Sequence record: OP172792
Direction: 5' to 3' (one strand)
DNA: 64,000 nucleotides
Source of the DNA: Escherichia phage ECO340P2
This document shows positions 7,722-9,282 of this stretch, in pieces. The position numbers were made by a program, and so were the translations under genes. Within the stretch, counting starts at the first letter, position 1. Each line of letters begins with the position of its first letter. The notes beneath the pieces were generated by a model. That model worked only from the letters and a program-made list of their open reading frames with translations, did not search any database and was not told the DNA's origin.

Positions 7722-7994
7722 TAGTTTTATTGAGCGGGACAGTGACGAGTATCCCATTGGGTGACTAGCCCTACGTTCGGTAAGCTAACTTAAAATAATA
7801 CAAAACCAAAGTCAAATATTATTCTTCGTTGCTGTCGATGGGAGAGCCGCTTCTTCTTTTGCCCCATCCAACCCTACTCCGGTCAAGTTTCAGGTAACTC
7901 TTTTTGTGATCAACACAATACTAAGAACACTGTCTTTCGAGCAGACCTTGTGCACAGGATACGACGATCAATCACAGTGCTCTTAATGTTGTTT

Positions 7995-8069
7995 TGGTGC
8001 TCCCACTCTGAATCGAACAGAGATCCACGGATTACAAAACCGTTGTAATAGCCATTATACTATAGGAGC
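7995..8069 (-). tRNA. tRNA-Thr (anticodon TGT)
   Basis: acceptor GCTCCTA/TGGGAGC, anticodon loop TTTGTAA, T-arm CTCTG/TTCGATT/CAGAG, CCA. Confidence 0.75.
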
Positions 8070-8075
8070 AAAGCT

Positions 8076-8152
8076 GGGACTCGGCAGGATTCGATACCTG
8101 CAATTCCAGAAGCCTCTTGGCGACTGGGGGTTTACCTTAACTCTACAAGTCC
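8076..8152 (-). tRNA. tRNA-like element with extended non-canonical central hairpin
   Basis: 7 bp acceptor GGACTTG/CGAGTCC and T-arm-like GCAGG..CCTGC, but 8-nt T-loop and a long irregular hairpin in place of the anticodon arm; no CCA. Confidence 0.3.
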
Positions 8153-8159
8153 ATAATTC

Positions 8160-8245
8160 TGGCGATGAGTATAGGATTTGAACCTATATCGTTCTTTCGA
8201 ACACGGATTAACAGTCCGCCGCTTAAACCATTCAGCCAACTCATC
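8160..8245 (-). tRNA. tRNA-Asn (anticodon GTT) with an unusual long variable arm (type-II-like, 86 nt)
   Basis: acceptor GATGAGT/ACTCATC, G73, anticodon arm GCGGA-CTGTTAA-TCCGT, extra GTTC-GAAA-GAAC hairpin before T-arm ATAGG/TTCAAAT/CCTAT. Confidence 0.65.
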
Positions 8246-8251
8246 TTAATT

Positions 8252-8339
8252 TGGTGGTGAGTGATGGAGTCGAACCACCCGAATCGCAATGATAACAGAT
8301 TTACAGTCTGCCCCGCTACCCCTACGGAATTAACTCACC
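8252..8339 (-). tRNA. tRNA-Tyr (anticodon GTA), type II
   Basis: acceptor GGTGAGT/ACTCACC, anticodon arm GCAGA-CTGTAAA-TCTGT, long variable arm, CCA. Confidence 0.8.
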
Positions 8340-8469
8340 TAAATACTAATATTTAAATTCTTTTTAAAATAGCCAGTGTTCACACCACTAACTATGAGTT
8401 ATCGGTAAAGTGGTTACCGCCACTTGCCGAAGATTTACTCTGCTAAAGTAAGCTATATTAAAAAGAACT

Positions 8470-8555
8470 TGGCGGTAGATGTAGGACTCGAACCTACACG
8501 CCGTTTCCGACTACAGTTTAGCAAACTGTCGTGGCTACCATTTCACCAATCTACC
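8470..8555 (-). tRNA. tRNA-Ser (anticodon GCT), type II
   Basis: acceptor GGTAGAT/ATCTACC, G73, anticodon arm ACAGT-TTGCTAA-ACTGT, long variable arm, T-loop TTCGAGT. Confidence 0.85.
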
Positions 8556-8560
8556 TAATC

Positions 8561-8651
8561 TGGCGGAAGGAGGGAGAGTCGAACTCCCAAGGCTCTTTCA
8601 AGCTCGGCGGTTTTCAAGACCGTTTTCGTCGCCACGTCGATTTGCCCTTCC
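8561..8651 (-). tRNA. tRNA-Ser (anticodon TGA), type II
   Basis: acceptor GGAAGGG/TCCTTCC, G73, anticodon loop CTTGAAA, long variable arm, T-arm GGGAG/TTCGACT/CTCCC. Confidence 0.8.
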
Positions 8652-8660
8652 ATACTTATA

Positions 8661-8689
8661 ATCTAACATAAAATAATGTTAGTTGTCAA
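8661..8689 (-). promoter_or_regulatory. sigma70-like promoter (TTGACA-17-TTAGAT) upstream of the right tRNA sub-cluster
   Basis: reverse complement CTATTGACAA motif about 30 nt upstream of tRNA-Ser 5' end. Confidence 0.3.
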
Positions 8690-8884
8690 TAGTTTTTTAA
8701 AACATTTTACCATGAATGGTGACTCCACCAACCCCGTTCTCCACGAACGGTGCTCTTCGAGCATTTATGTCTTCTAATATAACCGTGGCCTTTGTTTATA
8801 ATGTCTGACATACTTGCCTCATTCTCTGCCACCATGATCAGTAGTGGGTTCAAATCACTTGAGCTAATTCATGTTAAAATGTTC

Positions 8885-8959
8885 TGGTGTCTTTACAAGG
8901 AATCGAACCTTGACTAAGAGTTTAGAAGACTCCTGTGCTATCCATTACACCATAAAGAC
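8885..8959 (-). tRNA. tRNA-Arg (anticodon TCT)
   Basis: acceptor GTCTTTA/TAAAGAC, anticodon arm GGAGT-CTTCTAA-ACTCT, T-arm CAAGG/TTCGATT/CCTTG, CCA. Confidence 0.85.
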
Positions 8960-8961
8960 GT

Positions 8962-9036
8962 TGGTGGCCCTGGCTGGTTTCGATCCAGCTACCTATCGGT
9001 TATGAGCCGACAGCTCTCCCATTGAGCTACAGGGCC
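8962..9036 (-). tRNA. tRNA-Met (anticodon CAT; second copy, possibly a different CAT isoacceptor)
   Basis: acceptor GGCCCTG/CAGGGCC, anticodon loop CTCATAA, T-arm GCTGG/ATCGAAA/CCAGC, CCA. Confidence 0.8.
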
Positions 9037-9282
9037 ATAAATGTGGTAACAGAGACGCTGACGATTGTAGAGAACCGCTACATTCTCTAAGACCAAGCCC
9101 AACTTTCAGCGTAAAAGTTCTTGAGCCGAGACTATTCCTTTTCCTCTTTGGTAGCTAACCTCTGAAGAAGTAGTCTCTAACACTACCGCAGTGCAAGCCC
9201 CTCTTAACAAAAGTCAACGACCCTGTTACCACACTTGATGAACGTATCCTAACATATGAAGGATACGTTTGTCAATAGTTAT

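Follow-up and report, generated by a model that had tools for sequence, protein, structure and literature searches.

What occupies the long gaps between the transfer RNA (tRNA) genes of Escherichia phage ECO340P2 (sequence record OP172792)? The window analysed here, a stretch of 64,000 nucleotides (nt) whose positions serve as coordinates throughout, comes from a phAPEC8-like E. coli myovirus of the genus Phapecoctavirus, and its tRNA genes span 9036–7114, on the minus strand throughout. Four stretches within or next to this cluster (9040–9250, 8700–8880, 8340–8465 and 7740–7990) had been marked in a preliminary description, made from the sequence alone, as non-coding, probably structured and co-transcribed with the tRNAs. 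Our analyses support the proposal that they hold structured non-coding RNAs, which we refer to as modules A, B, D and F1 (each on the minus strand; Table 1). In our view these are probably small RNAs, structured, conserved and released by processing, that alternate with the tRNA genes. Over the surrounding 2.5 kb, the window is 98–99% identical to many Phapecoctavirus Escherichia phages (phAPEC8, ESCO13, Mt1B1_P17 and others), a common group of therapeutic-candidate coliphages.

Structured RNAs between the tRNA genes

The four stretches contain no credible open reading frame (ORF), as had been noted: the ORFs that overlap them are of at most 48 amino acids (aa), mostly begin with TTG or GTG and have no PHROG match at E ≤ 0.1. 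ORFs of 25–48 aa are present on both strands, and automatic annotation has placed coding sequences (CDSs) for "hypothetical proteins" here in the records of WPEC4, PsgM04F, PJ16 and Bas81, as would be expected if the modules encoded small proteins. However, the longest ORF is broken by 1-nt indels between close relatives (the window and phage phiWec179), the substitutions are paired across helices and show no three-base periodicity, and the "proteins" that overlie F1 in PJ16 and Bas81 are rich in Cys and Arg, implausible and on the opposite strand. We give the coding explanation scarcely any credence, and the CDSs annotated over these regions are probably spurious. None of the GenBank records examined annotates A, B, D or F1 as RNA, and no description of these elements was found in the literature on T5, phAPEC8 or the non-coding RNAs of phage tRNA clusters.

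When folding energies were compared with those of dinucleotide shuffles, three of the stretches were significantly structured, with z-scores of −4.7 for 9037–9250, −3.5 for 8696–8884 and −4.8 for 8355–8470. The fourth proved to be composite, as 7740–7994 in its entirety is not significant (z = −0.4) and only the hairpin at 7921–7986 is (z = −2.9). Three consecutive stem-loops previously noted at about 8716–8766 are real (8718–8729, 8734–8750 and 8752–8762); the last of these, GCUC-GAA-GAGC, is unconserved in Seunavirus, where its bases pair elsewhere, and was left out of the consensus fold. The minus strand of 9037–9250 folds to −76.8 kcal/mol and the plus strand to −53.7 kcal/mol, an asymmetry that stems from many G-U pairs and suggests a minus-strand RNA.

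All four stretches are conserved, and comparison across related phages yielded compensated pairs in the consensus folds of A, B, D and F1 above those in slid-alignment controls. The consensus fold of module A (RNAalifold and pair counts) has 70 pairs, with 99.3% of cells paired and 8 compensated pairs in six helices (0–1 in slid controls). For module B, whose alignment comprises 14 distinct sequences from Phapecoctavirus, Seunavirus and metagenomes, the 8 helices together contain 48 pairs, with 99% of cells paired and compensation at 15 pairs (2–4 in slid controls; 0/500 shuffles). The corresponding values are 41 pairs, 98.5% of cells and 6 compensated pairs (controls, 0–1) for module D, and 30 pairs with 9 compensated (controls, 1–3) for F1.

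Could the modules be tRNA genes in decay? The helices of B and D follow a cloverleaf-like order, B contains UAGCUCA and CUGAUCA (compare CUGAUAA in phage tRNA-Ile), two further modules of the cluster (E and H, described below) are obviously tRNA-shaped, and one GenBank record marks two tRNAs of the cluster as pseudo. Pseudogenes, though, would not keep their helices by compensatory changes across genera and families, and A and F1 have no tRNA-like layout at all. In addition, relaxed ARAGORN searches (85% threshold, introns allowed, tmRNA mode) added to the 10 tRNAs found at default settings only tRNA-Ser(UGA), tRNA-Tyr and a "Leu(caa)" for module E, and called none of A, B, D and F1, which are therefore not divergent tRNAs. 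No Rfam family, including tRNA (RF00005), matched the four stretches (searched as 9037–9250, 8700–8884, 8340–8469 and 7740–7994) even at E ≤ 10. Decaying tRNA pseudogenes are, in our view, a highly improbable explanation. Phage tRNA clusters are usually annotated as tRNAs and empty spacers; here at least four RNA families without an Rfam match, all under structural selection, lie between the genes.

Module A starts a few nt past a predicted transcription start and ends 2 nt 5' of tRNA-Met. One of its hairpins carries the invariant loop UUAGCUA, with the palindrome UAGCUA at 9152–9157. Homologues of A were found only in Phapecoctavirus and in the phiWec179/PsgM04F lineage, to which it has ~81% identity.

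Module B begins at the base that follows the CCA of tRNA-Arg(UCU) and has at its end a U-run, 10 nt short of the −35 element of a promoter-like site (P2, below). Its elements include the invariant UUAGCUCA, a variable central hairpin, the hairpin at 8750–8734, the hairpin GGUGGAGUCACC at 8729–8718 and an invariant 7-nt loop, CUGAUCA (8841–8835), on a co-varying 6-bp stem. The order of these elements is tRNA-like, with an acceptor-like helix, a D-arm-like motif, an anticodon-loop-like hairpin, an extra domain, a hairpin and a further hairpin beside the 3' strand; a T-loop is absent, and the terminal helix extends past the acceptor position. By blastn, B is also present at ~70% identity in the tRNA clusters of Seunavirus (PVP-SE1, GAP31, 4MG and SSE121), and at this overall identity the unpaired UUAGCUCA, GGAGAAUGAG and CUGAUCA are unchanged. 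Scans with long patterns recovered B from only 4 IMG/VR contigs and 4 metagenome contigs, and from 0/185,579 bacterial genomes, which limits it to a few phage clades; a scan of IMG/VR with the 14-mer GGTGGAGTCACCAT gave chance matches only.

In GAP31 and 4MG, the end of B and the 5' end of tRNA-Leu(UAA) are no more than a few bases apart. The sequence right after B in PVP-SE1 and SSE121 resembles that same 5' end, with the annotated tRNA-Leu ~490 nt further on in PVP-SE1 and a gene for an HNH endonuclease following in SSE121, a layout that suggests a mobile insertion beside or within tRNA-Leu. We also observed that the palindrome in the B loop, UGAUCA (8835–8840), has a second copy at 7907–7912, within a small hairpin that immediately follows F1 on the 3' side, and pairing between the two copies is conceivable.

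Module D has the widest distribution among the four modules. It is present in 174 phage records, including T5-like Tequintavirus, rV5-like Vequintavirinae, Certrevirus, Justusliebigvirus and Phapecoctavirus, and also in phi92-like phages. Its usual place is just 5' of tRNA-Tyr: it lies directly before this gene in the window (15 nt from its end to the tRNA) and in phiWec179, Lindwurm and PBES02, and it ends at tRNA-Tyr in T5-like phages and Certrevirus; tRNA-Lys intervenes in VEcB, and there is a ~100-nt gap in W70. Hairpin 1 and the junctions are invariant, and the unpaired motifs CUUACUUUAGCAGAGUAAA and ACCGAUA are kept across three phage families. The loops at the place of the anticodon are of 4–6 nt and vary in length and sequence, and one junction has lineage-specific insertions, as is typical of structured RNAs.

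Table 1. Modules and other features in and around the tRNA cluster, in window positions.
Feature	Position	Strand	Description
Module A	9039–9236	minus	~198 nt; 22-bp closing helix (9236–9214 with 9061–9039) around five hairpins
Module B	8700–8884	minus	~185 nt; first base is the base after the tRNA-Arg(UCU) CCA; closing helix and 7-bp acceptor-like helix
Module D	8355–8470	minus	116-nt oversized cloverleaf; 13–15-bp closing helix starting at the tRNA-Ser(GCU) CCA
Module D hairpin 1	8451–8435	minus	Invariant
Module D hairpin 2	8430–8402	minus	
Module D hairpin 3	8394–8370	minus	
Module F1	7915–7992	minus	~78-nt hairpin; starts 2 nt after the tRNA-Thr CCA; ~19-bp basal stem; invariant internal GAUUGAUCGUCGU
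Small hairpin	7837–7869	minus	GGAUGGGG...CUCCCAUC; alone z = −0.1, no better than chance
Block F2	7734–7780	minus	Directly upstream of P3; conserved in phiWec179 and PsgM04F; z = −0.05
Module E	8076–8152	minus	tRNA-shaped; no credible decoding loop (C33, no class-II variable arm); 8-nt T-loop; no encoded CCA
Module G	7512–7606	minus	Interrupted ~24-bp hairpin between tRNA-Gly and tRNA-Gln; pyrimidine-rich conserved loop; z = −5.3
Module H	7200–7268	minus	tRNA-shaped; normal T-arm; 4–5-nt "anticodon" loop; no encoded CCA
tRNA-Ser(UGA)	8561–8651	minus	Sub-threshold Rfam tRNA-Sec match, 37.4 bits (8651–8565); found by relaxed ARAGORN, missed at default
tRNA-Tyr(GUA)	8252–8339	minus	Rfam tRNA match, 39 bits (8339–8255); found by relaxed ARAGORN, missed at default; next gene downstream of module D
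Promoter-like P1	9246–9275	minus	TTGACA, 18-nt spacer, TG-TAGGAT; AACTATTGACAA context; consensus scan
Promoter-like P2	8660–8689	minus	TTGACA, 18-nt spacer, TG-TAGATT; consensus scan
Promoter-like P3	7692–7721	minus	TTGACA, 18-nt spacer, TATAGT; 11/12 consensus positions
Terminator-like hairpin	6980–6998	minus	G+C-rich hairpin and T-run; sole minus-strand scan match outside tRNA genes

Module F1 and the fourth stretch

The stretch 7994–7740 contains, in order, F1, a small hairpin, an unconserved spacer (7781–7836) and a conserved block, F2, which is followed by the promoter-like site P3. The apical part of F1 consists of a 3-bp stem and a 7-nt loop made up of the palindrome GUGCAC (7955–7950) and an A. 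F1 is 100% identical in phiWec179 and PsgM04F although the neighbouring tRNA-Thr is replaced there, and it is found at 80–88% identity in unrelated siphophages (PJ16 of the genus Nonanavirus, Bas79/81, the Skatevirus BUCT_3377 and Klebsiella phage SCNJ1-C). There are F1 sequences in 30 IMG/VR contigs, and a unit of F1 and tRNA-Arg occurs in E. coli prophages in 52 genomes, in which the tRNA alone is annotated. Of 28 IMG/VR loci, 11 have tRNA-Arg(UCU) at ~0–250 nt from F1, and the other 17 have no tRNA in the fetched locus. Profiles of B, D and F1 searched with nhmmer against all fetched loci and the window gave no more window copies, and a weak second module in PJ16 only.

The loop hexamer is self-complementary in 31 of the 33 unique F1 sequences, where it reads GGGCCC (18), GCGCGC (7), GUGCAC (6) or, in the two exceptions, GUGCCC; GCGCGC occurs on two distinct stem backgrounds. 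Positions 2 and 5 of the loop co-vary (G-C in 15, C-G in 7, U-A in 4 and other combinations in 2 of 28 aligned sequences). The pattern used to search IMG/VR fixed G1 and C6, leaving only the inner four loop positions free, and homologues found by blastn were unconstrained. Since positions 2 and 5 are only two bases apart, they cannot pair within one hairpin, and the simplest reading of the covariation is that it suggests two molecules pairing symmetrically as a kissing-loop dimer. Since RNAcofold returns an extended duplex for whatever hairpin it is given, it is no test of kissing dimers. The same loop format is seen in B (C followed by UGAUCA, invariant in 14 sequences) and in A (U followed by UAGCUA, in both lineages), with no variation against which it could be checked; in F1, and possibly in B and A, the palindromic 7-nt loop could mediate loop-loop self-association. 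For F1, the co-varying palindrome is a concrete and cheaply testable hypothesis of RNA dimerisation.

These palindromes also bear on the possibility that the conserved features act as DNA: they could be promoters, operators, palindromes bound by proteins, or sites for homing endonucleases or recombination. GTGCAC and TGATCA are DNA palindromes too (the latter with a Dam site), three promoter-like sites and the conserved but unstructured F2 lie in or beside the stretches, the cluster is a recombination mosaic in which tRNA-Thr, tRNA-Tyr and tRNA-Pro are swapped among close relatives, and related clusters contain genes for HNH endonucleases. A protein site should keep its sequence, however, and the F1 palindrome switches among GUGCAC, GCGCGC and GGGCCC yet stays self-complementary. 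Many of the conserved pairs are moreover G-U, which is possible in minus-strand RNA only, and the strand difference in the folding energy of A likewise speaks against a DNA-level role. We regard this explanation as very unlikely for the modules.

F2 itself may be a DNA-level or regulatory element; it has a partial match in Citrobacter phage Tr1. The small hairpin upstream of the spacer has one compensatory switch, GGGG/CUCC in the window becoming GGAA/UUCC in phiWec179, which keeps the pairing.

In PJ16, Bas81, BUCT_3377 and SCNJ1-C, F1 lies ~70 nt downstream of a frame for an SsrA-like tag, ANE(E/D)RFLMAA*. These frames have sub-threshold matches to the Rfam model of transfer-messenger RNA (tmRNA), with E-values of 1e-6 to 1e-2; ARAGORN found no complete tmRNA in the four loci, and its relaxed tmRNA calls were junk. 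The tag frame is unannotated in PJ16, Bas81, BUCT_XGG_PSM_3377 and SCNJ1-C, where it reads AUAAAU-GCAAACGAAGA(A/U)CGUUU(U/C)CUGAUGGCGGCGUAA and spurious CDSs overlie it, and in SCNJ1-C it sits behind a sigma-70-like promoter. The four loci may encode a divergent phage tmRNA-like RNA. The possibility that F1 is a piece of the CDS that overlies it in the PJ16 and Bas81 records was rejected, as tblastn similarity extends over only 5–7 residues and the "proteins" appear to be spurious.

Directly upstream of F1, PsgM04F has one more hairpin module; the interior of this module is identical to a second module of Bas81 ("module 2"), and the basal stem is compensated. Hairpin modules with the F1 basal stem, ACAACAnnUAAGAGCA/UGCUCUUnnnGUUGUG, occur in tandem in several phages, and modules with this common stem seem to have been exchanged among phage tRNA and tmRNA-like loci.

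Predicted transcription and processing, and possible roles

The stretches had been thought to be transcribed as parts of a single tRNA operon. This does not appear to hold, based on the three promoter-like sites that adjoin them (P1–P3, Table 1): the cluster looks to be split by three sigma-70-like promoters into three units. The 12-mer AACTATTGACAA occurs three times, each time in the tRNA cluster and once at each of the three sites, and the pattern AANTNTTGACAA has 4 matches in the window against 0.67 expected. P1 lies directly 3' of the stop codon of the upstream ORF, is conserved in phiWec179 and has its −10 hexamer 9 nt from the closing helix of module A. The −10 hexamer of P2 ends 8 nt before tRNA-Ser(UGA), and that of P3, which is just upstream of tRNA-Gly, 11 nt before that gene. 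The first unit would comprise A, tRNA-Met, tRNA-Arg and B; the second, two tRNA-Ser genes, D, tRNA-Tyr, tRNA-Asn, E, tRNA-Thr and F; and the third, tRNA-Gly, G, tRNA-Gln, tRNA-Pro, tRNA-Ile, H, tRNA-Met and I. The hairpin at 6998–6980 probably ends the third unit; the other two minus-strand matches of the terminator scan fall within tRNA genes.

Each module has a long terminal helix of 13–22 bp and starts 0–3 nt from the CCA end of a tRNA or from a predicted transcription start; A and D end 2–15 nt 5' of the next tRNA, and F1 is followed by further sequence. Given this contact with tRNA ends, the modules should be released when the tRNAs are processed. In the scheme that we propose, three near-identical sigma-70-type promoters would give rise to three polycistronic precursors, from which the enzymes that mature tRNAs would release the modules as discrete RNAs of ~78–200 nt. 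On the side of the downstream tRNA the enzyme would be RNase P, and on that of the upstream tRNA, RNase E together with 3' exonucleases; the longer (17–22-bp) closing helices might in addition be substrates of RNase III. A cut by RNase P at tRNA-Met would free A as a structured 5' leader. The released modules would then persist as stable small RNAs, as RNAC and RNAD of phage T4 do. We infer transcription, processing and stability, along with any role in trans (as tRNA mimic or RNA scaffold), from the sequence.

The same arrangement is open to a simpler explanation, in which the modules are cis-acting processing or insulator spacers whose helices guide RNases III, E and P and help neighbouring tRNAs to separate and fold, the excised pieces being functionless. 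This would account for the closing helix that brackets every module, for the constant abutment to tRNA ends, for the travelling of D with tRNA-Tyr across phage families and for helices that are free to change in sequence while pairing is kept. But a mere spacer would not need invariant unpaired motifs, such as UUAGCUCA, CUGAUCA and GGAGAAUGAG in B or CUUACUUUAGCAGAGUAAA and ACCGAUA in D. Nor does it fit that F1 also occurs without a tRNA in the locus (in the 17 IMG/VR loci above) and inside tmRNA-like loci, or that many tRNA pairs of the cluster are only 2–7 nt apart and need no such spacer. We consider spacers unlikely as the full explanation, and the invariant unpaired motifs argue for specific tertiary contacts or partners over a pure spacer role.

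Several points weigh against our interpretation of the modules as processed small RNAs. P1–P3 are consensus matches only, and the promoter scan as a whole returned 8 sites against 8.0 in shuffled sequence, so that the layout of the units is a prediction. No minus-strand terminator-like hairpin besides that at 6998–6980 was found outside the tRNA genes, which leaves the boundaries of the units uncertain. Module A is represented by only two divergent lineages, and its 8 compensated pairs may reflect few independent events. Related sequences can beat shuffle controls without any structure (a caveat of the tool itself), 7740–7836 has no significant fold, and the long closing helices could simply be processing signals without a function in trans.

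As to function, modules B, D, E and H keep a tRNA-like layout but cannot decode. Several anti-phage systems attack tRNAs, and it is this that makes a reading of the modules as tRNA mimics relevant: conserved tRNA shapes without an anticodon suggest decoys or partners for host factors that bind tRNAs. The modules could function by mimicry of tRNA towards host factors that bind or cleave tRNAs, or by RNA self-assembly. Whatever these roles may be, D (in T5-like, rV5-like and phi92-like phages) and F1 (in siphophages and E. coli prophages) reach far past this phage.

Relation to known RNAs and neighbouring modules

The modules are new families of a known kind, namely structured RNAs in phage tRNA islands to which no function has been assigned, like the stable RNAs of T4 and the ROOL and GOLLD RNAs. 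With the phage tRNAs themselves they share the cluster, strand and predicted promoters, and B and D share with them a four-helix layout with an acceptor-like closure, to which B adds the D-arm-like motif UAGCUCA and a 7-nt anticodon-like loop. They differ from tRNAs in their length (78–198 nt for A, B, D and F1) and in having no T-loop and no free CCA end, the latter because the terminal helix runs on past the acceptor position.

RNAC (species 1, 139 nt) and RNAD (species 2, 119 nt) of T4 are stable RNAs of unknown role (PMC3014915, PMC9697503). They are likewise small structured RNAs in a tRNA cluster, and rnaD and rnaC directly follow tRNA-Arg(UCU), as B does, with spacers of 1–6 nt. RNAC has a tRNA-like T-arm and terminal helix and a canonical T-loop, which is absent from A, B, D and F1, and neither T4 RNA has the 13–22-bp closing helices of the modules. 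RNAC and RNAD have been shown to accumulate, whereas for the modules accumulation is a prediction. Searches of T4 rnaC and rnaD against all modules of the window with blastn-short returned chance 7–11-mers only, the best being a T-loop shared with module H. The modules nevertheless provide comparative material for a 50-year-old question, the purpose of RNAC and RNAD and of the RNAs of phage tRNA islands generally.

ROOL and GOLLD are phage and prophage RNAs that occur near tRNA islands and form homo-oligomeric cages with covarying kissing loops (PMC12286853). Like them, the modules are phage-encoded, often beside tRNAs and of unknown function; they carry self-complementary loops, co-varying in F1 and invariant in A and B, through which they may oligomerise. 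The known RNAs are far larger (~580 to >800 nt, with many pseudoknots, against 78–200 nt), and the Rfam models of ROOL and GOLLD gave no match at the gathering threshold over the 64-kb window and none at E ≤ 10 over 6900–10400.

A further parallel is the dimerisation initiation site (DIS) of human immunodeficiency virus type 1 (HIV-1), which has a 9-nt loop with flanking purines and a 6-nt self-complementary sequence whose palindrome is kept in natural variants, among them GCGCGC and GUGCAC. These two are also two of the three self-complementary F1 hexamers. F1 differs from the DIS in having a 7-nt loop on a 3-bp stem, and it is a small RNA of a double-stranded DNA phage, whereas the DIS serves the dimerisation of a retroviral genome. 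We suggest tentatively that F1 (and perhaps B and A) may form self-associating kissing-loop homodimers or higher assemblies, in principle miniature relatives of ROOL and GOLLD, and belong to a widespread and still unnamed class of RNAs from enterobacterial phages and prophages, associated with tRNA genes and above all with tRNA-Arg(UCU), with D, E and H as mimics that would act on host tRNA-handling or tRNA-targeting defence. This combined proposal is possible, but we would not put it forward as the expected outcome.

Modules E and H lie outside the four stretches and look like anticodon-less tRNA mimics under selection. For E, compensatory changes relative to Justusliebigvirus VEcB are found in the acceptor, T and "anticodon" helices, and the VEcB arm ends in a tetraloop; the "Leu(caa)" that relaxed ARAGORN calls there is dubious. 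For H there are compensatory changes relative to the rV5-like phage W70, and ARAGORN does not call it even at the relaxed threshold. The tRNA-like domain of tmRNA similarly has a tRNA shape without an anticodon loop, and in the siphophages F1 lies beside the SsrA-like tag frame. In the window itself neither ARAGORN nor Rfam found a tmRNA, and there is no conserved tag frame near F1. The sole match to YrlA (RF02553), at 22.8 bits (gathering score, 69), falls over true tRNAs at 7287–7406 and over no module.

Module G, a third such neighbour, has in VEcB a stem rebuilt from different sequence and a conserved loop. On the plus strand, its loop CUCAUGGUUUUCUCCUUC reads as a strong Shine-Dalgarno (SD) sequence and ATG followed by an ORF of 8–12 codons, of which MSK..FL is kept in VEcB by two offsetting 1-nt indels. 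A search of the window for mRNAs that this SD/AUG-complementary loop could target matched its own locus only.

The two tRNAs missed at default settings (Table 1) both lie outside the four stretches, and the counterpart of tRNA-Ser(UGA) is annotated as tRNA-Ser in PsgM04F. The cluster as a whole is a mosaic of recombination. In phiWec179 and PsgM04F, tRNA-Thr (7995–8069), tRNA-Tyr (8252–8339) and tRNA-Pro (7351–7427) are replaced or strongly diverged and a small CDS stands in place of tRNA-Asn; the non-coding modules alongside (E, F1, G, H and I) are ~100% identical. The host labels of Campylobacter phage B15, Acinetobacter phage ABPW7 and Pseudomonas phage PsgM04F look doubtful, as these phages are 80–99% identical to E. 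coli Phapecoctavirus in this region. Outside the cluster, 10050–10270 is an AT-rich intergenic block between divergent genes in which clusters of GTAC-containing repeats (e.g., gtactctgtactcaagtactgtactccgtactag) flank long A/T runs, an arrangement suggestive of an origin or a regulatory region.

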